Assembly: GCA_016208765.1 (NCBI GenBank)
Contig: JACQXK010000021.1
Coordinates: 8,053 to 72,052, forward strand
DNA from: Candidatus Omnitrophota bacterium
GTDB lineage: Bacteria; Omnitrophota; Gorgyraeia; Gygaellales; Profunditerraquicolaceae
Direction of reading: 5' to 3'
Length of the DNA: 64,000 bases
The notes below the pieces were generated by a model. The model was not told where the DNA came from and made no database searches. It worked only from the letters and a program-made list of their open reading frames with translations. This document shows, piece after piece, positions 1,393 through 64,000 of this stretch. Numbering within the stretch: the first letter of the stretch is position 1; each line of letters starts with the position of its first letter. The position numbers and the translations under genes were made by a program.

Positions 1393-3045
1393 CTACTTAT
1401 ACTTATCAGTGATGACTAACAGGTCCTCATTGACAGGAAGCGGTTTGGCATTATATTTAGTCACAAGGGCCTTTGTAACAGGGTGATTTTTATCCGCAAC
1501 GATAAATATGCCTGCCCTGTGCCATTCTTCTCTCATAAAAAATTGATACTTATTGCAAATGGCAGGATTTTCCTTGCAAAAGGAAATAAACTTTTCATTA
1601 ATATTGCAGGCATTGAACACAAAAACGTCAAAAGGCGCAGAAAAAGAATACTTGTAATCCGTTCTTCCGCATACCCCGCCTTCTGAAGGAGCGCAAAAAT
1701 CCTCTCCGTACTTTGCGTTGTGAATGTCTGTCAGTCCAAAAAGGTCTCTGACATAGACACTCGGGCCTGCGTAGTAGGGCAACATGCCGGCCACATCAGT
1801 AAGCAAAACTGCCGGAACATGTAATTCATTTAAAAAAGTCCCTATCTGCCGCGTGTGAAAAGAGAGAGGTTTTACCCCGCGCTTCTTTAATATTTCAACA
1901 GGCTTCAAGAAAAAGCCTGTTGATAAAACCAATATCAACACCGTTGCCGTGTATACAAGCGCTTTGACTTTTACTTCTTTATCACGAACTCTGTAAATAA
2001 AGGAATCAATGCCCCATCCAACCAGTATAAGCATTAGTGGAAGTACAGGGATCAATTGCCTGTGAAACCGGAAGAAGTCCCCTCCGCCCAATAATAGAAC
2101 AAATGCATTAACGGCTATGCCCGATGCGATCAGCCACAATAAGAAATCATTCTTGTCTCTATTCCTGAAAAGCAATATGAAAGGTATCAACACTCCTGTA
2201 TAAAGCAAAGGGGCTTCATATTTTATGCCTTCGGATATAATCCATATCAATCCCTTCACCGCCTGAAGATCGCCATTAATAATTTTTTTAAGGGAATAGG
2301 ATGCGTACCCCTTTGCCATGACCGTTGCCGGGACCCATTCCTTATAAAAGCTGTGCCTTGCCAGAAATATCATGACGGTCAAAGCAATGAATACGGATAT
2401 CGTCATAATTAATTTTTTAGGAATGTATTTATATTCCAGAAACACAAACCAGGTTAATACGGAAAGCATAAAAAGCGCGTAGAGCGGTCCTTCAGCCCTC
2501 ACGATATTTAAGAGCAACAGGGAAGGCAATACAGTCAAATAATTACCCGATGCCCTGCTCTTATAGAGACTGATTATGCAATACAATAATGCCAAGGAAG
2601 ACAATAACATGTCCGTCCATCCTGAGGCGCCGTAATGATAAACTCCGTAAGAAAGTGTGTATAACATCAAAATGACAATCGTCATAACACGAGGGCGGGA
2701 GAACCGGATAAGGGTGCAAATATAGCTCATGAGCAAAATACACCCTATTCCAATGAACAGATTCAAGACAGGGGAAAACGTAACAAGATTAAAAGACAAA
2801 AAAGATGCGGCGGCATAAATAGCTACCGACAAAAAACTCGAATACCCTTCAACATATTCACCGATGTTGAATACCGGCCCATGTCCGGCTGCCCAGTTCT
2901 CGGCATAGCGGTAGGCTATATAAGGATCGTCAACAAAAGGGGTTCCCTGAATGAAGAAGATGAATAAATAGATTGCGGTAAATAATAAAACTGCCGGAAG
3001 CGCATCCCGGAAAAATACTTCAACTTTATTCTTATTTCTTGACAT
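1393..3045 (-). CDS. Putative GT-C fold membrane glycosyltransferase of the DDxY family. It has an N-terminal multi-TM domain and a C-terminal soluble domain.
   Basis: 550 aa. The first loop motif VDDPYIAYRYAENWAAGHGPVFNIGEYVEGYSS is shared with ORF 18959..20836 (DDAYILLRYIDN...GLVYNKGEYVDGLSS). There are about ten hydrophobic segments. An acidic DD motif in the first periplasmic loop is typical of ArnT, PMT and other GT-C enzymes. Confidence 0.55.
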   Translation of the reverse strand: MSRNKNKVEVFFRDALPAVLLFTAIYLFIFFIQGTPFVDDPYIAYRYAENWAAGHGPVFNIGEYVEGYSSFLSVAIYAAASFLSFNLVTFSPVLNLFIGIGCILLMSYICTLIRFSRPRVMTIVILMLYTLSYGVYHYGASGWTDMLLSSLALLYCIISLYKSRASGNYLTVLPSLLLLNIVRAEGPLYALFMLSVLTWFVFLEYKYIPKKLIMTISVFIALTVMIFLARHSFYKEWVPATVMAKGYASYSLKKIINGDLQAVKGLIWIISEGIKYEAPLLYTGVLIPFILLFRNRDKNDFLLWLIASGIAVNAFVLLLGGGDFFRFHRQLIPVLPLMLILVGWGIDSFIYRVRDKEVKVKALVYTATVLILVLSTGFFLKPVEILKKRGVKPLSFHTRQIGTFLNELHVPAVLLTDVAGMLPYYAGPSVYVRDLFGLTDIHNAKYGEDFCAPSEGGVCGRTDYKYSFSAPFDVFVFNACNINEKFISFCKENPAICNKYQFFMREEWHRAGIFIVADKNHPVTKALVTKYNAKPLPVNEDLLVITDKYK

Positions 3046-3120
3046 TTGCCCTTCGAATAAAATTAATCATCGCATTATTAGTCATAATTTGTATTTCAAA
3101 CCTATCATAATCATATGTCC

Positions 3121-4167
3121 TTACATTGTTTTTTTCTTAAGCCAAGAATATACAGGTGCTTCAATAAAGCAGTAAAATAAAACTCCGGCAAGCACGGCCA
3201 TCGTCGTCATAATAAAGTATATTAATGTATTCGAATTAATAATTTTCAGGTAATCAATAAAAGCACCTGTGAAAGGTATTCCAACTCCATGTATGAGATA
3301 AATAGAATATGAGGCAGTCCCAAGAAACAATATAAATTGATTTTTCTTAAATAGTGATTCAACCATGTTATCCATGGAACCTAAGACAATTAGAAATGAA
3401 GCAAATCCTGCCAATAGAACCCTTGAGTGAAAAAAAGGCAGGAATTCTTTGAGGAAACCCAATAATGCCGACAAAAATATCAGGTTACCAGTTAAAAAAA
3501 ACCATATCCCCCTTTTCTTAATTAATCCTTCGAATTTTAGAGCTAAAAAACATGCAATCATTCCAAAGCCAAAAAGCAAATTATTGCATGAGAAAAGAAA
3601 GCCGAATTCATTATATATATCTTGTGAAGGAATATTAAGTGTCAGTATTATAACTTGCCAAATAATAAATACAATGCTCCCAACCTTTTTCGAAAGTATT
3701 AACAAACCAAAGAACAAATAAAAAATGATTTCATGAACAAGAGTCCATGCTATAGTTATAGGAGGTTCTCCACCGATCAACAACAGGCCAGATATTAATG
3801 GCAGAAATTCTATTTTGAGACTATTGTAATTGTCGAACATAAATAACTTAAATGAATGTACAAGAACTGCAAGCCAATACACTGGATAAATTCTCATAAA
3901 TCTCTTTTTAATAAATATACTAATTTTCTTTGACACTCCTATATCATTTTTGTGATTATAATAAACGATAAAACCACTTAGAACGAAAAAAAATTGGACA
4001 GCAAAATTTCCAAATTCAAACAGCAAAGTTAACCTATTTGTATAAAAATGGTCATCCATGTACATATTTGCATGGAAAAATACGATTAATAAAGCAGCGA
4101 AGGCCCGATAAACATGTAGGGAGTAAATCATCTTGACCGTTAATTTCCTATGAGTTTGTCCAAGCAA
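3121..4167 (-). CDS. Acyltransferase family 3 (OafA/YrhL-like) membrane O-acyltransferase.
   Basis: The motifs YRAFAALLIVFFH and FFFVLSGF are present, and the protein is multi-TM across 348 aa. The real start may be the internal Met (MIYSLHVYRAF...) near 4131. Confidence 0.75.
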   Translation of the reverse strand: MLGQTHRKLTVKMIYSLHVYRAFAALLIVFFHANMYMDDHFYTNRLTLLFEFGNFAVQFFFVLSGFIVYYNHKNDIGVSKKISIFIKKRFMRIYPVYWLAVLVHSFKLFMFDNYNSLKIEFLPLISGLLLIGGEPPITIAWTLVHEIIFYLFFGLLILSKKVGSIVFIIWQVIILTLNIPSQDIYNEFGFLFSCNNLLFGFGMIACFLALKFEGLIKKRGIWFFLTGNLIFLSALLGFLKEFLPFFHSRVLLAGFASFLIVLGSMDNMVESLFKKNQFILFLGTASYSIYLIHGVGIPFTGAFIDYLKIINSNTLIYFIMTTMAVLAGVLFYCFIEAPVYSWLKKKTM

Positions 4168-4357
4168 AAACTATTTTCGAAATTTCCTGTGATATTTTTT
4201 CATACTGTTTTATGATTATTGAAAAAAAACCTCCGAACTTGATGAACCCTCTTTACCGAAGAAAACAACGCAAGCATTAACGCATAAAATACTTCCCTGT
4301 ATTTTAAACCTTTCAATTTTCAACCTTCGAATCAGACATTGTAGCAACCAATGAGTT

Positions 4358-4423
4358 CCTGAATGAAGAAGATGAATAAATAGATTGCGGTAAATAATAA
4401 AACTGCCGGAAACGCATCCCGGA
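4358..4423. repeat. 66-bp near-identical copy (one mismatch) of 2946..3011, the 5' coding end of gene 1393..3045. Degenerate homology extends to about 4330..4460. I read it as a pseudogene remnant of a paralogous N-terminus.
   Basis: I aligned the sequences directly: cctgaatgaagaagatgaataaatagattgcggtaaataataaaactgccggaa[g/a]cgcatcccgga. Weaker similarity continues on both flanks. Confidence 0.8.
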
Positions 4424-4616
4424 TGAAGTCAATGTTTACTTTCCTGGTCTTTAACATTATAAGATTGTTACTGTCTTTTAGTATAAATATTTTGATAGTC
4501 TTTTGGAAAGATTTAACTTTGAATAAAGATCAAGACTTGATTTTTGATGGGAAAGAAAATGCCAGCTTTCAATTTTCATTGAAATCGTGATTGTTAAACA
4601 CTCCCTATTCATTAAA

Positions 4617-6389
4617 CTACCGAATACCGTTTATTTTTGCTTCATTATTTTCCATTAATTGTATTTCAAAATCCAGATAGTCCATGGTAGTTATTGTTGC
4701 TGGGACTGTGTTAAGAAATATTGCCTTCACCTTATTAGCTGGATGAATTAAATCTAACCATGTCTTAATAATATCTTCAGAGAGACACAATTTATTGGGA
4801 ACATCTACATATATCGTAGTAGTGTTATTGGGTAAGGAATAAACAATTTCAGAAAATTTTTTAAAAAAAATGAATTCGGATTTTGTTTCTGGTCGCCATC
4901 CTTTGATTTTTGTAAAAGGAGAATTAAAAAAAAGAAGTAACATCAAAATACCCATAACTAATGGAATAGCTATAGGCTTGAATAAAAATAAACGGGAAGA
5001 ACAAGCCTCTTTGATAGATTGAAAGCTTTCAAAAAGAATAAACGAGAGAAGAATACTGAAGGGTATTACAGAAAAATACATGTGCCAATTGGCTAAATAC
5101 AGCGTTAATAAATAAAGACTTAAAAGCAGTGACAACCAGATAATAAGAAAAACTATCAATTTGTTCTTATATGAGAGCGGGAAAAATATCCTTTTTTGTT
5201 CATAACTACCTACACATATTAAGCAAATGAAAAAAAAGTATAGAAAAAAATAGAATCTATTTAAAAAACTTCCCCTTTCATCATTTAAATAATTTATCCA
5301 CGATGTAATATTTTTGCCTTCAAAAAGCTGATGAGCTATGCCCAAATAGTTATTTTCTGTTAGCCGCGCTATTAATTGTTCTACAATAAGATAAACAGGA
5401 ATGCTGATTGTAGATAATATAAGCCCAATTATTAGCAGCTTCCCTACTAATTTCAATTTCCCCTGATGTAATTTACTGTAAAGCATTAAAGAAATAATGA
5501 GTGGAGGTAGAATCGTTACAAAAAGCCCTAAAGTAGATGTATTTAAATTTATTAGGTTACCGGGAGTTAGTAAGTAATAGAAATATTCAAAAATAATACT
5601 TCGGAAACCTCTTACTAATGGCTCGTGATATCCACCAAGTAAGCTTTTTAGAATATATAACCGCCAGATAAACAATATGAAAGTTACAATAAAATATGGG
5701 GCAACCTTTTTGATAGCCTGAACTGTCCTGAACTTTGGAGATGCTTCCTCTGAAAATATTATTAGATATGCGAAAACTAATACAGGAAATATAATTGCGG
5801 TCTCTTTTGACCAAAATGCAAGGATATATAAAAATATGGAGGAAAGTAAAAAAAATCTTCTATAAGATGCTACAGAAAGATGCTTCAAAAATAACAATAA
5901 AGAAAGTATTGAAAATAACGGTGACATAAGATCAGCTCTCATACCAACAGCAGTAACGCTATACATATTAACAGGGTGAGTTGTAAAGATAACTGCACTG
6001 ATCCACGCTATGAACTGTTTACCACCTGTAAGCAGCCTCGCTAAGAAGAAAACGGAGATTGAAACTAAAATATGGATGAGCAGATTTGTCAGATGGTAAC
6101 CAAAAGGATTTAGTTTCCATATAGAGTAATCTATTGAAAAAGACAATATCATCACTGGGCGATATAGAAGATGGTAAATCCCTGTTGTCTCAAGAAACCT
6201 TTCAGTGAAAATACGGGAAATATCTCCAAGGTCATGAACTCTGCCTTGATGAATACATTGCAAATCATCACCCCTAAAAAAATATTGAAGCATGTCTTTA
6301 AAGCTAAAAAAGGCAATGAGGCTTATCGATAAAAGCGCAAAGACTGTAAAAAATTGTTGGCTGGTGCAGGCCTTGTGTCCCCTCTTCAA
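4617..6389 (-). CDS. GT-C membrane glycosyltransferase, PMT_2/TMTC-like (DUF1736-type), paralog 1.
   Basis: 590 aa. The motif WKLNPFGYHLTNLLIHILVSISVFF matches the NPxGYHLxNxxLH signature of ArnT/PMT-superfamily TMTC-like O-mannosyltransferase homologs. The protein is polytopic with a C-terminal soluble domain. Confidence 0.7.
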   Translation of the reverse strand: MKRGHKACTSQQFFTVFALLSISLIAFFSFKDMLQYFFRGDDLQCIHQGRVHDLGDISRIFTERFLETTGIYHLLYRPVMILSFSIDYSIWKLNPFGYHLTNLLIHILVSISVFFLARLLTGGKQFIAWISAVIFTTHPVNMYSVTAVGMRADLMSPLFSILSLLLFLKHLSVASYRRFFLLSSIFLYILAFWSKETAIIFPVLVFAYLIIFSEEASPKFRTVQAIKKVAPYFIVTFILFIWRLYILKSLLGGYHEPLVRGFRSIIFEYFYYLLTPGNLINLNTSTLGLFVTILPPLIISLMLYSKLHQGKLKLVGKLLIIGLILSTISIPVYLIVEQLIARLTENNYLGIAHQLFEGKNITSWINYLNDERGSFLNRFYFFLYFFFICLICVGSYEQKRIFFPLSYKNKLIVFLIIWLSLLLSLYLLTLYLANWHMYFSVIPFSILLSFILFESFQSIKEACSSRLFLFKPIAIPLVMGILMLLLFFNSPFTKIKGWRPETKSEFIFFKKFSEIVYSLPNNTTTIYVDVPNKLCLSEDIIKTWLDLIHPANKVKAIFLNTVPATITTMDYLDFEIQLMENNEAKINGIR

Positions 6390-6514
6390 GAATATCCCTC
6401 CAGAAATGTCTTGTTTTATTAGTCTAAGTTTTCATATTTTATAAATTATGTTATATTAATGCAACGTTTTTTTAGCGTAAACAACAAGCAGTTACCTGTC
6501 TTAACAAAATAATT

Positions 6515-7255
6515 GTGATCCAGGAAAAAAAGAAACTATCCATAGTCTCCCCGCTTGCAAACGAATCAGAGACCTTAGAGTCCTTTTATAAGGAAATAAT
6601 CAAACATATCTCCCCGTTTGAAGACAGAATACAGATTAAGATATTTTTTGTTGTAGACAACGCAAGCAAAGATAATACCCGCAAGATCGTGGAGTCTCTT
6701 CAAAAACAGGACAGCCGGGTTCAGCTTGTGTGGGCGCCACAGAACAGATGTGTAGTGGACGCATACCTTGCCGGTTTTAAAGCCGCCATTGAAGATACCA
6801 CTGACTATATTTTGGAAATGGACGGAGGCGGCACTCATTTACCAGGTGAGATACCTCATTTCATTAACAAACTATTTGAGGGATACGATTGTGTCTTCGG
6901 CAGCAGGTTTACAAAAGACGCTGAAATGGACGCAAGTTTAAGGCGGCATTTTTTCAGCAGAGGGGGCACTATTGTTGCAAGAATTCTGCTTGGCATGAAG
7001 ATGTCGGACGCAACATCAGGTTTTGAAGCTTTTAAAAAAGATATTCTAAAAGCTATCATCTCAAAAAAACTTGTCTCTATCGGGCATTTCTACCAGACGG
7101 AAATCCGGTTCAGGGCCAAAGATTTCAACTATGCCGAAGTCCCGATCCATTACAGCAATCCCGTCAATAAAATTCCTTCAAAATATATACGCAATGCTTT
7201 TTACGGGCTGTTAGTCTGCTTCTTCGAAAGGGTCAGGGGTGTTAAGTATGGGTAA
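6515..7255 (+). CDS. GT2 family glycosyltransferase, Dpm1/GtrB-like soluble polyprenol-phosphate sugar synthase.
   Basis: GTG start. The protein has a VVDNASKDNT-type nucleotide-sugar binding region, an EMDGGGTH DxD-like segment and GSRF. No C-terminal TM helix. Confidence 0.75.
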   Translation: MIQEKKKLSIVSPLANESETLESFYKEIIKHISPFEDRIQIKIFFVVDNASKDNTRKIVESLQKQDSRVQLVWAPQNRCVVDAYLAGFKAAIEDTTDYILEMDGGGTHLPGEIPHFINKLFEGYDCVFGSRFTKDAEMDASLRRHFFSRGGTIVARILLGMKMSDATSGFEAFKKDILKAIISKKLVSIGHFYQTEIRFRAKDFNYAEVPIHYSNPVNKIPSKYIRNAFYGLLVCFFERVRGVKYG

Positions 7256-8243
7256 ACAAGCTGTTGTAATAACAACAATTCAGAAGCCTACAAAGGCTAT
7301 TTTAAAAATCGGCAGGCAATTAGGCAAGACATTTGATATTGTAATCGTGGGCGACAAGAAATCACCTCCGGATTTTTCAGCCAGGAACGTAAGCTTCTAC
7401 GGCGTTGAACAACAAGTCAATGTCGGTTCCAGGCTTGCAAAACTTCTTCCATATAATCATTACGGAAGAAAAAATATCGGCTATATTATTGCGATACGAA
7501 ATGGCGCTGAACTGATTTTAGAAACAGATGATGATAATATCCCGTATCAGGATTTCGGGACTAATCTTAATCTTGAAGTTAAAGGGGAATTAATCGCGGC
7601 TAAAGGATGGTTTAATGTTTATAACGAATTTACAGCGGAATATATCTGGCCGCGGGGATTTCCGCTGGAGAAAATAAATCAGAAGGCAAGGACCAGTAAG
7701 GCCAATCGAATAACGAACTGTCATATACAGCAATTTTTGGCAGATAAAAATCCGGATGTTGACGCTGTATACCGGTTAACAAAACCTTACAAAGACATAA
7801 TTTTCAAGAAGCGCAAACCTGTCATATTGGGAAAAGGCACATGGTGCCCCTTCAACTCCCAGAATACCGTAACCTACAAAGAGGCCTTCCCTCTCCTGTA
7901 CCTGCCTTCATATGTCTCTTTTCGCATGACCGATATCTGGAGAAGTTTTATTGCGCAAGCCGTAATGTGGTCCATGGACTGGTTATTAAGTTTCCATTCA
8001 TCGACTGTTTATCAGGAGCGGAATATCCATAATCTGCTTAAGGACTTCGATCAGGAAATCCCCGGATACCTGAAAAACCAACTGATCATCGATATCCTGA
8101 ATACAGTTCACTTTTCAGGCTCTGTGGGAAACAGGCTGTATCAAGCCTATGAGTCCCTGTCTAAGGAAAGAATTGTTGAAAGGAAAGAGTTAAAGCTGGT
8201 GGAAGGCTGGTTGAAGGATTTGAAGAAAGCTCAAAGTTACTAA
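7248..8243 (+). CDS. Putative GT-A fold glycosyltransferase of the DUF288/STELLO-like type. Function uncertain.
   Basis: The ATG at 7248 overlaps the stop of the upstream GT2 (tATGggTAA), suggesting translational coupling. The N-terminal Rossmann-like strand is VVITTIQKPT and the acidic patch is ETDDDNIP. The ORF track starts it at 7239 (GTG). Confidence 0.4.
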   Translation: MGKQAVVITTIQKPTKAILKIGRQLGKTFDIVIVGDKKSPPDFSARNVSFYGVEQQVNVGSRLAKLLPYNHYGRKNIGYIIAIRNGAELILETDDDNIPYQDFGTNLNLEVKGELIAAKGWFNVYNEFTAEYIWPRGFPLEKINQKARTSKANRITNCHIQQFLADKNPDVDAVYRLTKPYKDIIFKKRKPVILGKGTWCPFNSQNTVTYKEAFPLLYLPSYVSFRMTDIWRSFIAQAVMWSMDWLLSFHSSTVYQERNIHNLLKDFDQEIPGYLKNQLIIDILNTVHFSGSVGNRLYQAYESLSKERIVERKELKLVEGWLKDLKKAQSY

Positions 8244-8264
8244 TTTTGCCGTAGCAAAGCTCTA

Positions 8265-9737
8265 TCATTGAGAGATTGTAATTCTGTCGTTCATTAACTT
8301 TATAACTAATTCCACTATCCCCTCATCTTTCTTATCTTTAATTTCAAACTTTATGTCCGAATTCACATTTAGAGGATAGTCCGTATCAATATTCCATATT
8401 GTGTAGTGCGGCACAAGTTTGACGCGATTATCAGGATAATAATAATTCAGGAATTTTTTATAATTACCGTTTTCAAAACAACTGCCATCAGTGATGGGAG
8501 TGGTTCCTTTCGGATAGACATTGACCGGCAGATTATAAATGTGAACAGTAGTCTCCGGTGGCAAGGCCGGAACTATTTCCATCAGCTTATTCAGAACTGT
8601 TTTGCATATCTTTCCGCAATTTTCCACCTCTCTATAATTTTTTATCAATGGAGAATATATAAAAAGATACGCTATAAGACCAAGTGTTATGGCAGACGCG
8701 GTAAAATTTTTAAGTGAAGATAACGGTGTTACCCGTATTTTATTAATAGCGGATTGCAGGTTTCTAACAAAAACAACAGATATTATCCCGCTAAAAGGAA
8801 TTGATGGGATATACGCCTGACGATTATCGATGAATCCAAGTGTGAATAGAAAAATCATAAGAGGCGCCAGCATCCAGATCAGCAATAAAGTTATTAATCT
8901 TCCATAAATTGAATCTGTAAAGGAACGCTTTATCTCCCCCCAGTAAAGCAAAGAAATTAAAACTAACAACGAGAGAATGTGTCGTATGTTTATATGTAAT
9001 CTCTCAACCGGATCAAGCAAGTAAGCAAAATAATTTCTGATGTTCTCAGATACAGATACCTGCAAGCTCTTGCCGTATCCGGCAATTCCATGCAATAGGT
9101 ATGTACGCCACGCAACGTAAAGAACAGCTATTAATAGAAATGGCAGGCATACTTTAACTGCCTTGAACAGCTTTTCTTTATAAGGTTGCCCATTTGAAAA
9201 AACTATCACATACGTGAAGATTATAAGAGGCGTTATGATCGCAGTCTCCTTTGAGCCTAACGCGGAGGCAAAAGAAAGAAGAGAGAGCATAAGACACCAT
9301 TTTTTTAAAGGCCCTGCCGAGGTATATACCAAGAACAAGAAGAATGACAGAAGCATAAAGAAGGCTGGAAGAATGTCCTGTCTGTATGGGATTACCTGTA
9401 CATCATTTGCAAGGATTGGGTGAGTAGTAAAGACAATAGCGCTGAGCCATGCTATAAATAAATTCCCTTTTGTCAAAGAAAACATGATCAAGAAGAAAAG
9501 CACGGAAACCAATACATGATAAATAAGATTGGTCAAATTATAGCCGAAAGGATTTAGCCCCCATATAATATAATCAATGCTGACAGACAAGGCAGTTATG
9601 GGCCTGTAAAATCCGGTGGCCCACGGCTCCATAAATATCTTCGCTATATCATGCAGTGATCCAATGCGCCAATAAAAGATCAGGTATGTAGTATCTATAT
9701 TGCTGAAAAAATAGTTAAGTATTTCCCTGTAAGTCAA
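8265..9737 (-). CDS. GT-C membrane glycosyltransferase, PMT_2/TMTC-like, paralog 2. Candidate ArnT-equivalent of the upstream aminosugar operon.
   Basis: 490 aa. The motif WGLNPFGYNLTNLIYHVLVSVLFF matches the family signature, and the protein is polytopic. Confidence 0.7.
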   Translation of the reverse strand: MTYREILNYFFSNIDTTYLIFYWRIGSLHDIAKIFMEPWATGFYRPITALSVSIDYIIWGLNPFGYNLTNLIYHVLVSVLFFLIMFSLTKGNLFIAWLSAIVFTTHPILANDVQVIPYRQDILPAFFMLLSFFLFLVYTSAGPLKKWCLMLSLLSFASALGSKETAIITPLIIFTYVIVFSNGQPYKEKLFKAVKVCLPFLLIAVLYVAWRTYLLHGIAGYGKSLQVSVSENIRNYFAYLLDPVERLHINIRHILSLLVLISLLYWGEIKRSFTDSIYGRLITLLLIWMLAPLMIFLFTLGFIDNRQAYIPSIPFSGIISVVFVRNLQSAINKIRVTPLSSLKNFTASAITLGLIAYLFIYSPLIKNYREVENCGKICKTVLNKLMEIVPALPPETTVHIYNLPVNVYPKGTTPITDGSCFENGNYKKFLNYYYPDNRVKLVPHYTIWNIDTDYPLNVNSDIKFEIKDKKDEGIVELVIKLMNDRITISQ

Positions 9738-9814
9738 AAAAGCGATAAGGATAATTGACAGGACTGCAATACCAGTGAAAGATGTATATGTTCTCTTTGG
9801 AATTGTCCGAGCCT

Positions 9815-10741
9815 CTACTCTAAGAACTCTTTTACTATAAATATTGGCCTGCCCTGAATCTCTTTATATATCCTGAAAATATATTCACCCATTATTCCGA
9901 GAAATAACAACTGTATTGAAGCTACCAGATATATACTAAGTAAAGTTGACGACCAGCCAAATGGGGCTATTCCAGAGAATTTGCCTATAATGGTATAGAC
10001 AGTTGCCAGAAAGAAAAGTATCACTCCTGCCAGGCCGGTAAAAAGACAAATTTTAATTGGAAAGTTGGAAAACGAAAAAAATGCATCTAATCCAAGGTTG
10101 AATAATTTACCGAAATTCATTTTTGCTTCTCCGGTCATTCTGTCAGGCCTGAAATATTCTATATATCCCTGTCTAAACCCGACAAAGGACCTCAAACCCG
10201 GCAGATATCTGTTTCTTTCCTTAAACGATAAAAGGGCGTTTAAGGCTTTACGGTTAAGCATTGAAAAATTCCCGGCGTCAGAATCTGTATCTATTTTTAT
10301 AATATTTTTAAAGAAAATATGGAACACTTTAATGAACAGATTCTTTGGAAACTTTTCCTGCCGCCCGGTTCTTTTGCCGTATACAATATCGTAGTCCCCG
10401 TTAATCAGTTTTTCATACATTTCCTTTATCAATTCAGGCGGGTCCTGCATATCTCCATCCATCATTGCAATATACTCGCCTTTGGCATATTCTAAGCCTG
10501 CGGTATAAGCTGCCTGATGACCAAAATTTCTGGCAAGCATTAGAACTTTAAAGCGGTTATCTTTCTTATGGCATTCAATTAATTTGCTTAAGCTCTTATC
10601 TGAACTCCCGTCATCAACGCAAATAATTTCAAACAAATCCGTTATTTCTTTTAGAGCATTAATGCTTCTTTCAAAAATCTCTTTAATCAGATCTTCTTCA
10701 TTAAAAACAGGTATGACTAAACTGATAAGAGGTTTCGACAT
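9815..10741 (-). CDS. GT2 polyprenol-phosphate glycosyltransferase (ArnC/GtrB-like) with C-terminal TM helices.
   Basis: The N-terminus is LISLVIPVFNEE, followed by VDDGSSD and MDGDMQDPPE (DxD). There are two C-terminal hydrophobic helices. 308 aa. Confidence 0.85.
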   Translation of the reverse strand: MSKPLISLVIPVFNEEDLIKEIFERSINALKEITDLFEIICVDDGSSDKSLSKLIECHKKDNRFKVLMLARNFGHQAAYTAGLEYAKGEYIAMMDGDMQDPPELIKEMYEKLINGDYDIVYGKRTGRQEKFPKNLFIKVFHIFFKNIIKIDTDSDAGNFSMLNRKALNALLSFKERNRYLPGLRSFVGFRQGYIEYFRPDRMTGEAKMNFGKLFNLGLDAFFSFSNFPIKICLFTGLAGVILFFLATVYTIIGKFSGIAPFGWSSTLLSIYLVASIQLLFLGIMGEYIFRIYKEIQGRPIFIVKEFLE

Positions 10742-10791
10742 AGGTTATTGTCTCATTTTCTAAATTTATTTTTCAATTTCAGTGAAATTGT

Positions 10792-11508
10792 CTATAATTT
10801 CCGGGCAATCAGCAGGACCGATTTGCCTACCCTGTAACATAGCAGAGGATCAAATAATTCTGACATTCTGATTATTACCCTGTCCCAAAATAAGATCTGT
10901 TTAATTGACGGATAACTCTGCCTCAAAAACAACTTATTGGCTAATGATGCTGTCAGGCCTACTGAATCTAAATAGATAGCCTTTATGATATTAAAACCAT
11001 GTGGTACGATGGACATGAGTTGTTTTCTTGTATAACGCCTGAGATGTCCTATCGCCCTGTCAAATGGAGTATAAAGAAACTGGTGCGCAGGCACAACAAT
11101 CATCAACACACCGTTTGCATCAAGGTATTTCTCAGCTAAACCAAGCTCTGCCTTATCATCTTCAATATGTTCCATTACATCGATATAAATTATAGCGTCA
11201 AATAATTGCCCTAACGGCATGTCCTTCAGTGTGCCAACCTTACATCTGCAGCATGGGGGCAGATTGCTTTCAGCTATCTGTTTATTTATATTTTGGGCCA
11301 GATTCGGGTCAGGTTCCAAACATACCCATTCATCCTGTGAACCGTCGCATAAAGACAATGTGGTGCCGCCGATGCCGGCGCCCACTTCCAGTATTCTTCC
11401 TTTTAAATATTCCCGTAAAAACCCGCCGTAGTATCTTTTCCAGTTTACCGCTTTATCAAAGATAGTGAGTTCATCCCCTATGTACTTGTCAGGACTCTCA
11501 TTTACCAT
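10792..11508 (-). CDS. Class I SAM-dependent methyltransferase. Candidate sugar N- or O-methyltransferase.
   Basis: It carries the LEVGAGIGGTT glycine-rich SAM motif. At 238 aa it matches the size of TylM1/DesVI-type enzymes. Confidence 0.75.
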   Translation of the reverse strand: MVNESPDKYIGDELTIFDKAVNWKRYYGGFLREYLKGRILEVGAGIGGTTLSLCDGSQDEWVCLEPDPNLAQNINKQIAESNLPPCCRCKVGTLKDMPLGQLFDAIIYIDVMEHIEDDKAELGLAEKYLDANGVLMIVVPAHQFLYTPFDRAIGHLRRYTRKQLMSIVPHGFNIIKAIYLDSVGLTASLANKLFLRQSYPSIKQILFWDRVIIRMSELFDPLLCYRVGKSVLLIARKL

Positions 11509-11511
11509 ATT

Positions 11512-12249
11512 TTATTTTCTTGCAATACAAAATACGGACAATCCGAAAGGGAATCTTATTCCAGACATTATTAAAAAGTTCTCAATAGATAGCACTCCCG
11601 TAAGTATTTTATTGAACACCCCCGGCAATGGTTTCAGGTCGGATTCTATATGTTCTGCACTCATAAAAAACATCTCTAAAATTCTCTTAATAAAAGCTGC
11701 TGGAAAGAGAACTGTATTCCTGTAGGTCAATTTTTCAATGCTAAATCCGGCTTTTTCAATTTTTACTAACAGTTCTTTGCAGGTATACCTCCGCCTGGTA
11801 TGAACAGCTATATCATGCCTTCCTCTAAGAAAATTATAAGCCGGCACATTCAAGACAACTATCCCGTTCTTATTTACAACCCTGTAAAACTCCTGTAATG
11901 CTTTCAAATCGCTATAGACATTTGCATGATACAAAACATCCAGCGATATAACTACATCAAAGGAGTTGTCGCTGAACGGGATATTGCAGATTGATCCTTG
12001 TACGATATTATTTAATCCTCTCTTTTGGCAAAATTGAATTGCCTCTTCTGAGAAATCCAGTCCGCTTGCATCATATGCCTTGCAGCTTTCCAATGTCTTT
12101 CCAGTACCGCAACCGGCGTCCAGTATTTTTAAATTTCTTTCTTTTGATGCAAACTTATCAATCGAGGAAAACACCAATTTTCTTAAGCCGACGTACCACC
12201 AGTAACTATCTTCAATTTGGTACATTACTTTATACTCTTCTTTTTCCAT
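11512..12249 (-). CDS. Class I SAM-dependent methyltransferase. Candidate sugar N- or O-methyltransferase.
   Basis: SAM motif ILDAGCGTGKT. 245 aa. Confidence 0.75.
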   Translation of the reverse strand: MEKEEYKVMYQIEDSYWWYVGLRKLVFSSIDKFASKERNLKILDAGCGTGKTLESCKAYDASGLDFSEEAIQFCQKRGLNNIVQGSICNIPFSDNSFDVVISLDVLYHANVYSDLKALQEFYRVVNKNGIVVLNVPAYNFLRGRHDIAVHTRRRYTCKELLVKIEKAGFSIEKLTYRNTVLFPAAFIKRILEMFFMSAEHIESDLKPLPGVFNKILTGVLSIENFLIMSGIRFPFGLSVFCIARK

Positions 12250-17414: not shown

Positions 17415-18962
17415 TTATTTCCGGGGGACATAAATGAATTCTGGTCTAATGGCAAGCCCTGAGACCGGCCAAAATACATTTTCATCTTCAAAAGCTGTGT
17501 CTTGTTTTATATAATATTTCTTGATATATCTTAAACCCGGCCCTCTATCCTCAGCGCCGTTATTCGAAGAAAGAACAATGGCACTGAATCTTTTTTCCTG
17601 TAAGGCATTTTCTATTTCACTTAATAATCCCTCTTTGGGTTTGCCTTCATCCCACATTAAAATATCTCGAATTGCTGCTCCATGAGCATAACTTTTTTTT
17701 CCAGCCATAATTGACAGGTAGCCTGAATCAGGAATAAAAACCTCACCTTCTATTTGTTTTATTTTCCTAACCAATTCTTTGCCGGCTTCCAAATCCCTTT
17801 GATTAGGAATGTATAAAGCGGTATTATACCTAATAGGCTCAAGACAAAACTGCATAACACAAATAAGACACAAGAAAATTTTTATTAAAGACTGTCCTCT
17901 TTCAGACACAGTATGTATAGATTCTAAGATCATATTAAATGCCATACCAAATAAGATAGCCATACTAGCGAAAACCATTAATAAAGAATTCTGCCCGCCT
18001 CCCGGATTAACCCGGGATAAACATGATATCCCTACCATATCGATGAATACAATGGAGTAAAAAAGAAAATTCTTCTTGTTTGCATTGAAGAATTGAGCAA
18101 GTATGAAGAATATGGACAAAGCCAACGCAATGGGCATCGTAGGCAATATGTCTTTTTTCCAGAAATGAGCAAACATTTGATCTTTAAAAAAAGAGGAGGT
18201 CATTAACGGCGTCTTTGCCATTGAGAAAAAGAAATAATTATACCAGCCGTCGTGAATATAATTTAAAAGAAATAGTACACTGCCACCGACAATAATTGTA
18301 GTACCAATAAAATAAATAGACCGTCGTAAGTCCCACAGAAGACAATAAAGCATTATAGGCAATGAAACCAATAATGCACTTTGTTTAGTCAGGAAAGCAA
18401 GTACCATCACTATACCGGCGAGAATATACATTATGCTTGAACTTGCAAATTTTACCAGATAAACAACCAGTAGCAAAAATAGCAAAAAAAGTACATCAAC
18501 CCTGCCCATGTCAAACCAACCACCTGTCAGAGGGTATGATGCAGCAAATAAACACGAGGCAAGAATCCCTGCATATTTACTTCTTGTTTCTTTATAGACT
18601 ATAAGGAATATAACGTAAAAACAACCAAGAGATGAAATAAAAGATACAAGTCTTTGTGCTGTGAAGGTTAAACCGATAATAGTTGAGGCAGCGGCTGAAA
18701 TATAGAAATAAAGAGGTGCATAAAGCAAAGGAACATATTCTAATGATGGACTAACATATAATTTCTGTCCCGATCTTATCCTTGTTATTTCAGTTAGTAT
18801 CCCTCCCTCCATCCACTCTAATTCAAATGGATAGTTAATACGGGAAAAAACAATATACAAATATTTTACAACATATAAGATGCCGACTAATATTAATATG
18901 TATTTTGCAAACTTAGCTGTCCAGTTTAAAATAGTTTGATTCAAAACTGTCTGTTTCATCAA
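17415..18962 (-). CDS. Polytopic membrane protein of the YPFELEW family, paralog 1. Putative GT-C-like glycosyltransferase with a C-terminal periplasmic domain.
   Basis: 515 aa. The N-terminal region INYPFELEWMEGGILTE...SPSLEYVPLLYAPLYFYISAA is strongly similar to ORF 24064..25560. It has many TM helices followed by a roughly 150-aa soluble C-terminus. Confidence 0.6.
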   Translation of the reverse strand: MMKQTVLNQTILNWTAKFAKYILILVGILYVVKYLYIVFSRINYPFELEWMEGGILTEITRIRSGQKLYVSPSLEYVPLLYAPLYFYISAAASTIIGLTFTAQRLVSFISSLGCFYVIFLIVYKETRSKYAGILASCLFAASYPLTGGWFDMGRVDVLFLLFLLLVVYLVKFASSSIMYILAGIVMVLAFLTKQSALLVSLPIMLYCLLWDLRRSIYFIGTTIIVGGSVLFLLNYIHDGWYNYFFFSMAKTPLMTSSFFKDQMFAHFWKKDILPTMPIALALSIFFILAQFFNANKKNFLFYSIVFIDMVGISCLSRVNPGGGQNSLLMVFASMAILFGMAFNMILESIHTVSERGQSLIKIFLCLICVMQFCLEPIRYNTALYIPNQRDLEAGKELVRKIKQIEGEVFIPDSGYLSIMAGKKSYAHGAAIRDILMWDEGKPKEGLLSEIENALQEKRFSAIVLSSNNGAEDRGPGLRYIKKYYIKQDTAFEDENVFWPVSGLAIRPEFIYVPRK

Positions 18963-20836
18963 GGCTTAATCCGTGGTGGAAATGTAAAGGCAAGTTTTAA
19001 GTTTTCTGATAAATCATGATTATTAAATATCTTGCGTTCAAGGATCTCGATAGTATTTATATTTCTTACTATCCACTCAGAGGCCCTGCCATCATCAACA
19101 GCTTTTCTGTACATGCCTCTGCCGATAAGGTCAGACGATTTATATAGATTTAGTATGTCTTTTGCATAAGGATATACGGGATTATGCCCTGACATTGTCT
19201 CGCTATTTATCAGCAAGCGAGCAAGAACTGCATCTGTTAAACCCCAGCCATGTATAATCCTCTTGGAAAAATGTTCATAATCAGTCTCACACCATATGCC
19301 AATTTCTATGTCATCATATTTAAATTCCGTCTTTTTATTAACTTTTTTAATCTGGTCTCTCATGTCGGTTATATACCCCAAATGGATATGCTGCCCGGCC
19401 TGCATAAGAGATGCTGCTTCCGTTATTTTGACTTTATCAAAAAGCAGTTCTCTTTTAACTTTCTCCTCGGGTATCGAGTTATTATAAGTTGAGCTGAGAA
19501 AAATCGGATGTCTCTTTAGCTGGACAGGGTAAAATGAAAAAAACAAAAGTATAATGACCATCGTTATTGAAGGCACTGCTGATCTGTATTTCGATATATT
19601 AAACTGCTGCATAAAGTTGCCCAGAATGCCTGAGAAAGAACACGTTATAAGGATAAAGGGAAAGGCAAGATAGCGGTAATGGGTCCAGTCCCCGCCGATC
19701 TTAATTACATAAAGCAAAACAGGCAACGCCGTAATGACCATCATCACTCTCTTTGAAAGCTCCAATTCAATGCTTTTCTTTTTTAGAAAATAAATAAAAA
19801 ATAAAAATAGAACTGCTACTTCATAAAAATGATAAGTCCCGAATGTGTCATGAACATAAATAAGCCCCTGCTTTATATTGATCTTATTTTTGTAGTAAAA
19901 CGTGTTAGGAAATATATCGGCATAATAATAAATTCTGAATAAAACCCATGAACCTAAAGAAGTTATCATCAGCAAGACCATCTTTAATGGAAATTTCTTG
20001 TCATGCAGCCAGGTCCACACAGAGCAAAAAACAAAAGGGATGATCAGCTCATGCCTCACTAACGGTGACATAGCCAGCATGACTTGCAGGGTTCTTGATC
20101 CTGGGTTGAGTATGTATAATGCATATGCAACTGCAAGAACCTGAACGATCGACGTCTCCATCCAGGATGAAAAATGACAAAGCACAGCATAATTAAATGT
20201 AAGATACACCAAGGGGAAATTGATGCCGATTACAGGGGGAGAAAGCCTCCTGTCAAGTTTCACCAGCATTAACCAGAATAAAATAAAACTCAGTGTAGTT
20301 ATTAAACGGAAAATATTAGCCCAGTTAGCGCCTGTAGTCCTTAAAAAAGAAGCAAGAATTACCATAAATGGACTGCTCAGCCCATCAACATATTCGCCTT
20401 TATTGTAGACAAGACCATTTCGTAGAAATAACATGTTATCAATGTATCTTAATAAAATATAGGCGTCATCCATCACCCAAAAATACCATTGAATCAGAAA
20501 TAAACCCGCCACCAGGCAACACCACTCTATTGAGTGAATTTTGAGATATTCTCCTTTTTTGTATCTTGAAATGGAAACAAGAAGAAAAATAAAAAAGAAC
20601 ATGGTAACAAACAGGTTTTTTATCACTCCATAAAGCAACCAGTGCGCCTCCTTGTGATAATCTATTACCTGGTTTTCCATCGTTTGGAAAATGCCAAGAT
20701 CATACAGCGTCTTAATAAACTGGCTGCCGTAAAACTTATAAACTGCAAATGTCACAGGAATGCTTACTAATAACACCGCAATAAACAAAAGAGGAAGCTT
20801 GTTATCCCAAATCCATTTATTATTTTTCAATCCCAT
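18959..20836 (-). CDS. Putative GT-C fold membrane glycosyltransferase of the DDxY family, paralog of 1393..3045.
   Basis: 625 aa. The motif DDAYILLRYIDNMLFLRNGLVYNKGEYVDGLSSPF is present. The protein is polytopic with a C-terminal soluble domain. Confidence 0.55.
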   Translation of the reverse strand: MGLKNNKWIWDNKLPLLFIAVLLVSIPVTFAVYKFYGSQFIKTLYDLGIFQTMENQVIDYHKEAHWLLYGVIKNLFVTMFFFIFLLVSISRYKKGEYLKIHSIEWCCLVAGLFLIQWYFWVMDDAYILLRYIDNMLFLRNGLVYNKGEYVDGLSSPFMVILASFLRTTGANWANIFRLITTLSFILFWLMLVKLDRRLSPPVIGINFPLVYLTFNYAVLCHFSSWMETSIVQVLAVAYALYILNPGSRTLQVMLAMSPLVRHELIIPFVFCSVWTWLHDKKFPLKMVLLMITSLGSWVLFRIYYYADIFPNTFYYKNKINIKQGLIYVHDTFGTYHFYEVAVLFLFFIYFLKKKSIELELSKRVMMVITALPVLLYVIKIGGDWTHYRYLAFPFILITCSFSGILGNFMQQFNISKYRSAVPSITMVIILLFFSFYPVQLKRHPIFLSSTYNNSIPEEKVKRELLFDKVKITEAASLMQAGQHIHLGYITDMRDQIKKVNKKTEFKYDDIEIGIWCETDYEHFSKRIIHGWGLTDAVLARLLINSETMSGHNPVYPYAKDILNLYKSSDLIGRGMYRKAVDDGRASEWIVRNINTIEILERKIFNNHDLSENLKLAFTFPPRIKP

Positions 20837-25601: not shown

Positions 25602-27578
25602 TCAGTATGCATTAGATCGCTTAATGCTTTTATTTGCACGGGAGAGTTCATTTTCAATTAACGCAGCGAGACGCTGCGCTATTTGAGGTTCCTCCTTCGA
25701 TATATCTCTTGTTTCATTAGTATCAGACTTGAGGTCAAAAAGAAGTGATTTATTCTTCTCCAGATAATTAACAAGCTTATAGCCTCCGTCCCAGACAGCT
25801 ATTGTGCCTTTATCGATAAAATAATTTCCAAGGATGCGGTTCTTCATCAATTGCATGGAAAATACCGGCCTCGGCTCATGCGTCTTGCCCTCAAGTACCG
25901 GAACCAATGAACGCCCTTCCATCCATTCTGGGACAGGGATATCTGCGAGCTCAAGAATAGTTGGAGCTATGTCTATTTGCTCTACAGGCATTTCTGCAGT
26001 CAGGGTCTTGGTTGTCCGTGGTGTCTTTATCACCAGAGGAACACGGACCAGAGATTCGTAAAGCTCAAACTCGCCATGGCTCACATATCCATTTGAAAAG
26101 CTCTCACCATGATCTGAAGTGAAAATAATAACCGTGTTGGACATGTCGGTTTTTTCACTGAGCCGTTCCATAAATATTTTAAATTCATTGTCTGCATCGA
26201 GAATAAACTCATCATACCGTTTTCTTAGAATATTCACCTTTCTCTGGGTGTCCGGTTTGTAATATGTCCCAATCAAGCTGCTGTTGATCTGTTTTTCGGG
26301 TGTATTCAATTCTTCTGCATCTCCGAATGCGCCCATATAAGTGGCACGGGGGTTATAAGGGAAATGAGGCGGATAAACATGTATGTATGCAAAGAACGGC
26401 TGTTCAGTCTTGCCGGCAATGACATCAAGAAAGCGGTTATACACCGTCTCAGGCCGTATTGAAGTTATATAGTAAGGGAAGCGAAAGAGCTTTATATTAA
26501 AAGGAGAAACAAGCGGGTTATCTATGAAAATCCATTTTGCTACAATAGGTCTTTTGAGATAAAATTCCACGCTCTTGTCAATCAGCCACGTCGGTGATAT
26601 CCAAAATGTGTCTACCTCATCTCTTATAATAAATGCATCTTTCATTCCCAAAGTCTTCGGATGCGCATAGTTATTTTGCGCAAAACCATATACAGCATAA
26701 CCATGCTCTCTTAAGATATCAGGCAAATTGTTTTTATAAAAACTGACGGGATGATTCTCCGCCAGATACCATACCCTGTGTGTCCATGGTCTTTGGCCCG
26801 TCAGGATGCTCATGGTTGAAGGAGTGGTCCAGTTAGATGTTGAATACGCGCGGTTAAAAACAATGGCGTCCTTTGCCCATTCAGCTATAAATGGTGTTGT
26901 AGGACGGTGGTAGCCGTATAACTGCATATCAAGTGCGGTCAAGGCATCCATTACAACAACTATAATATTAGGGCGCTTATTATTGCCGATAAATACTCCC
27001 TGAGCAGTTTTAGTTGATGGTTGAGAATGATATCCTGCCTTTGAATCAGAGGTGCTTTTTTTAATCATGGAAAAAGGGACGGCAAGAATTAACAGAACGG
27101 TAAAGATCCAGAACAGCGGGGCAATCCTTATGTCTATTCCAACAAGGGCTTTTTCAAAATTTATATACTTACTTGCCAACCAGAAGAGCACAAGAACAAG
27201 TAACCCGGATGAGATTAAAAACAAATAATAATTTATACCGATAGAATCGCTTATCGAAATATCCAGGAAAGTCTTTTTTAGGATGAACGCTATTATACCC
27301 AGTAAAAAATAAATCAGAACTTGCTCAAAACAATTTATCTTCAAATATCTTAGAGACACTTTTGACAAACCATAGGTGACTATCCAAAAAAGAAATGCAG
27401 CTATAACTCCAAGCAATGTCCATAAAATGAATGATAAAGACAAATCAGGCAGGAAATCTTTAAAGCCCATATAATAGGAATATCCGTCCCACTTGTAAAA
27501 AGCATCCCTTATAAACATCAGGGAAAATAAAATAAAAAATATCCTCAATGTTACAACTAAAGATTTTTTAGCTGACAT
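25602..27578 (-). CDS. Membrane-anchored sulfatase/alkaline-phosphatase superfamily protein (LtaS/EptA/OpgB-like), paralog 1.
   Basis: The N-terminus has about 5 TM helices. The C-terminal domain carries NIIVVVMDALTALD (metal-site motif) and TSDHGESFSNG (sulfatase DHGE motif). 658 aa. Confidence 0.8.
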   Translation of the reverse strand: MSAKKSLVVTLRIFFILFSLMFIRDAFYKWDGYSYYMGFKDFLPDLSLSFILWTLLGVIAAFLFWIVTYGLSKVSLRYLKINCFEQVLIYFLLGIIAFILKKTFLDISISDSIGINYYLFLISSGLLVLVLFWLASKYINFEKALVGIDIRIAPLFWIFTVLLILAVPFSMIKKSTSDSKAGYHSQPSTKTAQGVFIGNNKRPNIIVVVMDALTALDMQLYGYHRPTTPFIAEWAKDAIVFNRAYSTSNWTTPSTMSILTGQRPWTHRVWYLAENHPVSFYKNNLPDILREHGYAVYGFAQNNYAHPKTLGMKDAFIIRDEVDTFWISPTWLIDKSVEFYLKRPIVAKWIFIDNPLVSPFNIKLFRFPYYITSIRPETVYNRFLDVIAGKTEQPFFAYIHVYPPHFPYNPRATYMGAFGDAEELNTPEKQINSSLIGTYYKPDTQRKVNILRKRYDEFILDADNEFKIFMERLSEKTDMSNTVIIFTSDHGESFSNGYVSHGEFELYESLVRVPLVIKTPRTTKTLTAEMPVEQIDIAPTILELADIPVPEWMEGRSLVPVLEGKTHEPRPVFSMQLMKNRILGNYFIDKGTIAVWDGGYKLVNYLEKNKSLLFDLKSDTNETRDISKEEPQIAQRLAALIENELSRANKSIKRSNAY

Positions 27579-62836: not shown

Positions 62837-64000
62837 TCAGTCATTTTCCTTTACTTCTATTATTTGATCAGCATTAATATTTGTTAACACCGACCGCTTA
62901 CTGCTTGGCCAAACAATTTCTATTTTATCTACAACGATTGACTTGGCAAGTCCGAAATGGATAATGCTACTGTGCTGGCTGTACCCTTCCATTCCTCCTG
63001 TACTCTGCCGATATTGCATCATGTTCCCGGCATATAGTCTTATTTGAGCGCCGATTGCGTCTCTGTTACTCGTTGTTCCGAATAATTTTAATTTAAGCCA
63101 GTGGTTCATGTTACCCTTGTTTTCATACAATACGTTTGAACCCGCTTTAGCTTCATATTTATCGTCCCAAATCCTTCTACCGTTAGTTAAAAACAAATCC
63201 AGAAAACCATCATTATTGTAATCAGCATTTGTAACACTGCATCCCTTGCCGTTAAAGTCCTGTATCAAGCCTATTTTTTTAACAACATTCGTAAACGTTT
63301 TATCTCCATTGTTTTCAAAGATGATATCATTAAGATTAGCGCCCGACGGGTCATCAACAAGGAGGTAAATATCCAAGTCTCCGTCGTTATCATAATCAAA
63401 AAAAACCGCTTTATTCCCGCCCATTTCTATTCTGAATCCGGTTTTGTCTGATACGTCTATAAACTGTCCACCTCCTGTATTTTCATATAGTTTATCGAAC
63501 CCTCTGAAAATGTACGGGAATACGCTGAAGTCGTATTTCCCAATATACATCCTTGGCGGAGCAGTGATAAACAAATCATAGTCACCATCGTTGTCATAAT
63601 CACCCCATGCATACCTCAGGCCATTAAATGTCATAACCTTTTTGAACGTACCATCGCGCATGTTTCTGAAAATAGAAATCTCCCATGTATCCCTGTGCCC
63701 CCGGTTAAAAGATACTGTCAAATCCATATATCCATCATTGTCATAATCTGTCCAGCTTGCCTCGACAGGTTCATCCACAAAATCTAATCCGGCTTTAACT
63801 GTGACATCAGAAAACGTGCCATCTCCGTTATTTCTGAATAAGACGGAAGGGGCATCACTGCGTTTGCCGTTTGCCATAAATAAATCTAAAAATCCATCGT
63901 TGTCATAGTCGACCCATGAAACGGACCTTCCCCTGCCCTTCGGGTTTGTAACGCCTGCTTTTACAACAACGTTAACAAATCTACCTGTTCCGTCATTCTG
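62837..64000 (-). CDS. FG-GAP/VCBS (ASPIC-UnbV-like) repeat protein. The C-terminus is in the window; the N-terminus lies beyond the window end.
   Basis: It carries repeated NNGDGTFSDVT, DYDNDGYMDL and DYDNDGDLDI beta-propeller calcium-binding-type motifs. The frame stays open upstream of the listed Met to position 64000 (…SWVDYDNDGFLDLFMANGK…). Confidence 0.7.
   Translation of the reverse strand, partial: QNDGTGRFVNVVVKAGVTNPKGRGRSVSWVDYDNDGFLDLFMANGKRSDAPSVLFRNNGDGTFSDVTVKAGLDFVDEPVEASWTDYDNDGYMDLTVSFNRGHRDTWEISIFRNMRDGTFKKVMTFNGLRYAWGDYDNDGDYDLFITAPPRMYIGKYDFSVFPYIFRGFDKLYENTGGGQFIDVSDKTGFRIEMGGNKAVFFDYDNDGDLDIYLLVDDPSGANLNDIIFENNGDKTFTNVVKKIGLIQDFNGKGCSVTNADYNNDGFLDLFLTNGRRIWDDKYEAKAGSNVLYENKGNMNHWLKLKLFGTTSNRDAIGAQIRLYAGNMMQYRQSTGGMEGYSQHSSIIHFGLAKSIVVDKIEIVWPSSKRSVLTNINADQIIEVKEND

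Follow-up and report, generated by a model that had tools for sequence, protein, structure and literature searches.

Remnants of wzy are found between wbaV and wbaU in Salmonella groups B1 and D1 (PMC3715488). The locus described here resembles such O-antigen and capsule remnants in that a truncated piece of a membrane glycan-assembly gene lies in an intergenic gap of a surface-polysaccharide locus, where it is a record of gene gain, loss or recombination that can be recognised against related clusters. It differs from them in that the 5' end found in the gap duplicates a gene which is still intact 1.4 kb away and to which it is 98% identical, in that insertion-sequence fragments are absent, and in that the host belongs to the uncultured Omnitrophota.

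Displaced 'orphan' gene ends have been described in Rhs, CDI and T6SS effector-immunity arrays as well, for which homology-facilitated illegitimate recombination was proposed (PMC5361080). As in these arrays, a module would have entered our locus by one short homologous anchor and an illegitimate join at the other end, and a piece of the resident gene would have been left, with gene ends repeated around the new module; the arrays, however, hold 3' toxin ends with functional immunity genes, which can be re-expressed, whereas here a 5' end was displaced and it has no evident function. De Vries & Wackernagel 2002, Prudhomme et al. 2002 and Meier & Wackernagel 2003 are among the references of that array paper. 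Campbell-type single-crossover integration of circular DNA duplicates the homologous segment, and the present locus shares with its products the sharply bounded, near-identical direct repeats flanking an insert and the two hybrid gene ends that are both in frame. It differs from them since neither a circular form nor a plasmid function nor an integrase was seen, and 66 bp is a very short homology. Direct repeats around an inserted gene are also typical of the target-site duplications of IS elements and transposons, nevertheless an insertion of this kind was ruled out: the repeat measures 66 bp and not 2-14 bp, and there is no transposase and no terminal inverted repeat, acyltransferase-3 being the only gene between the repeats and their borders being free of inverted repeats.

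The present case is a further example of displaced gene ends and remnants, in an uncultured lineage, and it is ordinary in kind; unusual in it are the duplicated 5' end that stays in frame and the presence of scars of three genes. The DNA analysed, referred to as the window, is a 64-kb stretch of a Candidatus Omnitrophica metagenome-assembled genome. We consider it likely that the gap in question is a recombination scar, and that the relic within it stems from the insertion of an acyltransferase gene at a gene pair which formerly overlapped.

The duplicated start of the GT-C gene

Every gene at this end of the window is encoded by the minus strand. The gene for a 590-aa membrane protein (4617..6389), called PMT-like in the first-pass annotation, is the upstream member of the gene pair that overlapped ancestrally, and it is collinear with a 589-aa gene of the related locus L001. 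It is followed by an acyltransferase-3 gene (3121..4131, 336 aa, MBI4707201.1; Pfam PF01757, E = 2.6e-23), the closest homologue of which has 54% identity and stands in another gene context, while no homologue was found in any fetched GT-C locus. The third gene (1393..3045, MBI4707200.1, locus tag HY761_04680) encodes the intact 550-aa DDxY GT-C protein, is the source of the relic core, and is collinear with the GT-C gene of L001 at 72% nucleotide identity. Its residues 38-51 hold the DDxY-type motif VDDPYIAYRYAENW, located after the first transmembrane helix. The 550-aa family has no whole-protein match in Pfam or NCBIfam; a profile built from 24 members of the family matched the N-terminal DDxY region, residues 55-132, of the mycobacterial arabinosyltransferase AftB (PDB 9dlf) with E = 1.8e-7, and the match of the 625-aa family to the NCBIfam model of terminal beta-(1->2)-arabinofuranosyltransferase was far below the cut-off. 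The label 'DDxY GT-C' is fair, for a distant relationship only.

The GC content is about 31% in the 590-aa gene and the acyltransferase gene and 41% in the GT-C gene. Base composition was discarded as a sign of foreign origin because it is uninformative: L001 has the same contrast between its 590-type and GT-C genes, GC3 being 29% versus 46% in the window (4617-6389 versus 1393-3045) and 28% versus 40% in L001 (8245-10014 versus 10001-11653).

The core of the relic (4358..4423, minus strand) and the corresponding part of the intact GT-C gene (2946..3011, minus strand) share 65 of 66 bases, exactly as it had been reported from the first reading of the sequence. This core corresponds to nucleotides 35-100 of the GT-C coding sequence, that is to codons 13-33 with parts of codons 12 and 34, in good agreement with the earlier placement of the source at residues around 10-35, and it codes for the first transmembrane segment of the protein. 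The exact part of 54 nt occurs twice in the window and not once in 100 shuffles. When the whole window was searched for repeats, the pair was recovered as the sole near-identical repeat of the 64 kb, all other repeat families being paralogs of 63-77% identity; moreover, the gap that contains it is the only intergenic gap of the window with fragments of window genes. The copy does lie between the acyltransferase-3 and the PMT-like (590-aa) genes as first described, but the gap measures 485 nt, and 449 nt only if an ORF with a TTG start is counted. The degraded similarity that was believed to continue for 30-40 bp on each side did not hold: beyond the core 13 of 40 positions match on the 3' side of the gene (P about 0.2) and 16 of 37 on its 5' side (P about 0.035), the latter mostly around the ATG. 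At both ends the repeat breaks off sharply.

The identity of the core to the intact gene, 98% (98.5%) at the nucleotide level, stands against 57-72% to all other members of the family. The residues RDA are common to the relic and the intact GT-C and occur in no other family member, which places the origin of the copied core in this lineage.

The relic can be read as an ORF (4332..4457, minus strand) consisting of an ATG, 12 diverged codons, 21 core codons, 8 unrelated codons and a stop: MLKTRKVNIDFIRDAFPAVLLFTAIYLFIFFIQELIGCYNV. It opens MLKTRKVNIDFI-RDAFPAVLLFTAIYLFIFFIQ-ELIGCYNV, while the intact GT-C opens MSRNKNKVEVFF-RDALPAVLLFTAIYLFIFFIQ-GTPFVDD..., and one residue differs between them in the 21 core codons. 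Its ATG at 4457 is exactly 1412 nt from the GT-C ATG at 3045, and both have the same offset to the core. Homology to the GT-C ends at 4358, after which the ORF stops 8 unrelated codons further on; in a blastx comparison with P0001 the relic gave E = 3e-7. The first 12 codons (4424..4457, minus strand), designated N12', are of a different kind. Their nucleotide identity is 41-58% to any 550-type 5' end and 47% to the first 36 nt of the intact gene, thus they are as distant from it as the remotest members of the family, whereas the first 36 nt of the intact gene are 72-77% identical to those of its orthologues. The length and the residue pattern of N12', with basic residues and an F at position 11, are nevertheless typical of the 550-type family; an origin from a 515-type gene was rejected, N12' having no resemblance to 515-type starts. 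The relic is accordingly chimeric: its N-terminus is old or foreign, whereas the part that follows was copied very recently from codons 13-33 of the resident gene.

No gene is on record with the product of this ORF, and no 3' end of a 550-type gene was detectable in the gap. The relic is homologous to a functional gene, truncated, and absent from the orthologous loci L001, L006 and L052, and we read it as probably a non-functional remnant. The designation as a pseudogene relic was appropriate, since it is a truncated copy of the 5' end of the GT-C gene in a non-coding gap. It should be emphasized that the relic has kept its ATG and a frame that stays open across the core, as is expected of a young copy and equally of a functional element. 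In annotation, the 41-codon ORF does not merit the status of a gene, and the 485-nt gap should be regarded as a scar and not as a regulatory region.

Related loci and the proposed formation of the scar

The closest full locus is L001, from candidate division WS5, the GT-C of which has 69% protein identity to that of the window. Window 9833..4646 aligns to L001 4856..9967 and window 3100..1465 to L001 9943..11581, the junction region of L001 aligning to both sides of the about 1.5 kb that the window has in addition. The 589-aa gene of L001 overlaps the start of the GT-C gene by 14 nt and no acyltransferase is present; in L006 and L052 the 590-type 3' end lies 30-34 nt upstream of the GT-C ATG, again without acyltransferase. 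All three loci have a single GT-C, which abuts or overlaps the 590-type 3' end, and no extra GT-C at the junction. On the basis of this synteny about 1.5 kb (roughly 4616..3113) was inserted at the ancestral junction. Since the relatives are distant, with about 70% nucleotide identity, they constrain the timing of the events loosely.

The ancestral junction has left traces on either side of the insert. An open 27-codon relic of a 590-type 3' end, X2 (3032..3112, minus strand), stands directly ahead of the intact GT-C gene; it reads DYDRFEIQIMTNNAMINFIRRANVKK and can be compared with DYLDFEIQIVDNTNTVIKVTPRMNVKK in L001 and DYLDFEIQIMDNNTMINVVPRTNVKK* in L052. Like the 589-aa gene of L001, X2 shares 14 nt with the GT-C start, and it begins 9 nt past the stop codon of the acyltransferase; the position of X2 shows that an insertion which carried the acyltransferase has separated the two parts of the ancestral 590/GT-C junction. 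An attC-like site was also considered and discarded, as the 9 nt between the acyltransferase stop and X2 leave no room for it. The functional 3' end of the 590-aa gene, X1 (4617..4682, minus strand), is homologous to X2; over 35-37 nt it agrees with L001 at 92% and with L006 at 91%. An estimate by eye puts the identity of X1 and X2 at about 70%, and the computed value for a 28-nt stretch is 82%. X1 has lost the ancestral last ~6 codons, which are replaced at the junction with a further relic.

That relic is the 3' end, including the stop, of a DDxY GT-C gene of the 625-aa type (4530..4601, minus strand), reading VFNNHDFNEN*KLAFSFPSKIKS* with an in-frame TGA at 4569-4571. A weaker similarity extends to 4616, directly after the stop codon of the 590-aa gene. 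Dozens of family members share the conserved C-terminus IYNNHDFxENLKLAFTFPPKIKP*, which the relic matches, and the relic has 68% amino-acid identity to the window's own gene at 18959-20836; by an estimate made by eye, which gave about 74% nucleotide identity, it is not a recent copy of this 625-aa gene. The arrangement of a 625-type end followed by a 550-type start was found in no locus searched. The gene after the 625-type gene in L087 was examined as a candidate 550-type GT-C, which could have supplied both relics together, and ruled out, for it belongs to another family, like the 515-aa gene of the window. Between the relic core and the start of the acyltransferase there are 226 nt (4132..4357, minus strand), segment J, for which no similarity was found in the window, in the 95 fetched loci or in the 276 collected proteins, and no match in Rfam; one frame of J contains a short FNNH-like string, which we attribute to chance.

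The scar is a mosaic in which four or more junctions can be told apart: that of the 590 gene with the 625-type 3' fragment, that of the diverged 12 codons with the core, that of the core with J and the acyltransferase, and that of the acyltransferase with X2. It holds scars from three different genes within 1.6 kb. Upstream of the insert lie X1, which is the real 590 3' end, and a 5' fragment of the GT-C gene; downstream lie X2, the dead counterpart of X1, and the real start of the GT-C gene. Neither flanking gene was broken, since each side of the insert retained junction sequence.

The pieces of this mosaic differ greatly in age. The core has 1 difference in 66 nt, and the adjoining homologous pieces are diverged by 30-55%; under a uniform divergence of about 25% the probability of at most 1 difference in 66 nt is, according to our calculation, about 1e-7. 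The core is too similar for uniform divergence, which points to its separate, recent origin. We suggest that about 1.5 kb with the acyltransferase-3 gene was placed at the junction of the 590-aa and 550-aa GT-C genes, and that the last event may have been a single-crossover (Campbell-type) or a homology-facilitated illegitimate recombination in which the core was the only homology; either of these routes would duplicate the core around the acyltransferase. The sharp homology borders fit a homology-facilitated illegitimate or single-crossover model, and neither a donor nor a pre-insertion ancestral allele was found among the loci searched. The mechanism, the order of the events and the donors are what we infer, and whichever model is chosen, two events or more are required. 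For RecA-dependent recombination, 66 nt is a short anchor. Gene conversion acting on an old relic was discarded as an explanation by itself, since the flanks lack the homology from which it would have to start.

If this history is correct, the locus provides a base-resolved example of the splicing of an accessory modification gene, an O-acyltransferase, into a giant glycan-synthesis island of uncultured groundwater bacteria (Omnitrophota and relatives), by which the overlapping neighbours were not inactivated.

The junction has been rearranged in a relative too. In L052 (1148-1410) an internal deletion of about 1.5 kb has reduced the 590-type gene to 43 codons at its 5' end and 42 at its 3' end, ahead of the GT-C gene, and the GT-C has an in-frame stop (NIGE*VEGYSS); L052 appears to be decaying at the same junction. 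The internal deletion at the same place marks the junction as a recurrent rearrangement site. As a separate observation, the 590-type end (…DYLDFEIQ…) shows 86-92% nucleotide identity between loci for which about 70% is usual elsewhere (window 4646-4682, L001 9931-9967, L006 360-394, L052 1279-1365, a small sample), and the dead copy X2 is only about 74% identical.

Alternative origins of the repeat

The first-pass annotation took the relic as the record of a past event which removed a paralog. On this model a complete second 550-type gene would have stood between the 590-aa gene and the acyltransferase and would have been deleted save for its first ~34 codons. We regard such a loss as unlikely. 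The genuine 550-type length and pattern of N12', diverged like a distant paralog, speak for it, as do the fragment of another GT-C (625-type) in the same gap, by which paralogous material has evidently passed through, and the internal deletion at the junction in a relative, where two ends of the L052 590-type gene are left. Related genomes were to show whether an intact extra GT-C occupies this position, however none does, either in L001, L006 and L052 or among the 80 loci that the family profile retrieved, and downstream of the relic there is no 550-type 3' end. Furthermore, the divergence of the relic from the surviving GT-C is not uniform, and the 47% identity over 36 nt beside 98% over 66 nt could be accounted for only by further recombination; the X2 relic upstream of the intact gene would be left unexplained by a paralog loss. 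The removal of a paralog was thus not borne out, and an insertion at the ancestral junction remains the preferred reading.

It is less probable still that the repeats are functional, either because in-frame repeats let the acyltransferase cassette be deleted or because the relic is a gene for a 41-aa peptide or an attenuator. The function could be an excision which switches glycan acylation, a 41-aa membrane peptide, or an attenuator made of a hairpin and a U-run ahead of the acyltransferase. As regards excision, the two copies have the same frame and the same distance to their ATG. Recombination between the repeats would fuse the relic start codon and the 12-codon N-terminus to the GT-C body, giving a full-length hybrid ORF of 550 aa, and the loop-shaped assembly graph (see below) is compatible with a mixed population. 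The acyltransferase might then be deletable, perhaps even re-insertable through a 1412-bp circle, so that glycan acylation is toggled without loss of the GT-C, an idea to which we give little credence; with just as little confidence, the relic start could be taken for the native N-terminus of the pre-insertion allele, kept as both states are used. Against these proposals, the hybrid protein is on record nowhere: the product of deletion, or of the pre-insertion allele, is absent from a collection of 15 billion sequences, although an exact-sequence comparison is a weak test. There is also no relative with this arrangement, hence nothing that would show conservation, and near-identity of nucleotides is what a young duplication gives. 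No new biological question is opened by the locus unless the repeats mediate ongoing excision.

The peptide variant is favoured by the ATG of the relic ORF and its complete transmembrane segment, and the attenuator variant by a terminator-like hairpin with a U-run in the core, the single mismatch between the copies being in the loop. This hairpin, CCGGGAUGCG(U/C)UUCCGG followed by the U-run, is present in both copies (4406-4422 and 2994-3010, minus strand) at GT-C codons 13-18. Its minimum free energy of -6.9 to -8 kcal/mol is no more stable than that of shuffles (z = -0.5 and +0.3), the U-run is T-rich coding sequence of the transmembrane helix, promoter-like sites are not enriched (12 against 8.9 expected), and there was no match in Rfam. 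The orthologues can form a similar stem (TGGAA…TTCCA).

The arrangement was also followed in independent Logan assemblies (k=31) of the runs SRR12113406 and SRR12113402, which match the window at 99.99-100% identity. Contigs L092 (SRR12113406, window 11915..4382) and L093 (SRR12113402, window 8050..4382) end in the relic core, L090 (SRR12113406, 1418 nt) covers window 4387..2970 and thus reaches from the relic core into the second copy, and L094 and L095 start at window 2975; these breakpoints lie exactly k-1 = 30 nt into the common 54-mer. The graph around the repeat is a simple loop, which is consistent with the window and compatible with a mixed population too. All three edges of the loop were recovered at 100% identity in SRR12113406 and the two outer ones also in SRR12113402, and at the mismatch position each copy keeps its own base, linked to its own flank. 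Exact-protein look-ups in the indexed assemblies gave no match for the full GT-C, the relic ORF or the acyltransferase; they matched the 590-aa protein, in two Logan contigs, and the GT-C body from codon 25, the GT-C gene being split at the repeat in these assemblies. That misjoined strain variants made the duplication during metagenome assembly is hardly credible, even though the sequence comes from a metagenome-assembled genome and the repeat is a branching node in the k=31 assemblies, since the loop edges are recovered at 100% identity with the variants linked to their own flanks, a 66-nt repeat is shorter than typical Illumina reads and is assumed to be resolvable by them, and a misjoin would collapse the repeat instead of adding a second copy with unique sequence on both sides.

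Other repeats and gene pairs of the window

The repeat search and the locus comparison brought further features of the island to light. Two paralogous genes (25602-27578 and 30468-32429) stand 4866 nt apart and are 66-71% identical over several hundred nucleotides; the syntenic loci carry sulfatase-domain genes similar in size to this pair. At 63189-63918 there are five copies of a 43-nt unit, with 63-77% identity to the reference copy and a spacing of 147-204 nt. Four of these are within the gene 62837-63877 and the fifth extends beyond the gene on the 5' side. Translated from the coding strand, the unit resembles D-x-D-N-D-G-type repeats, and the gene probably encodes a repeat-domain protein. 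In the window (17415-20836) and in L087, L088 and L089 a 625-type GT-C gene is always followed by a gene for a membrane protein of ~500-530 aa, which matches PMT_2 in some of the pairs, the spacing ranging from a 4-nt overlap to 66 nt. The 625-type GT-C gene and its ~500-530-aa partner are a second conserved gene pair of the island.
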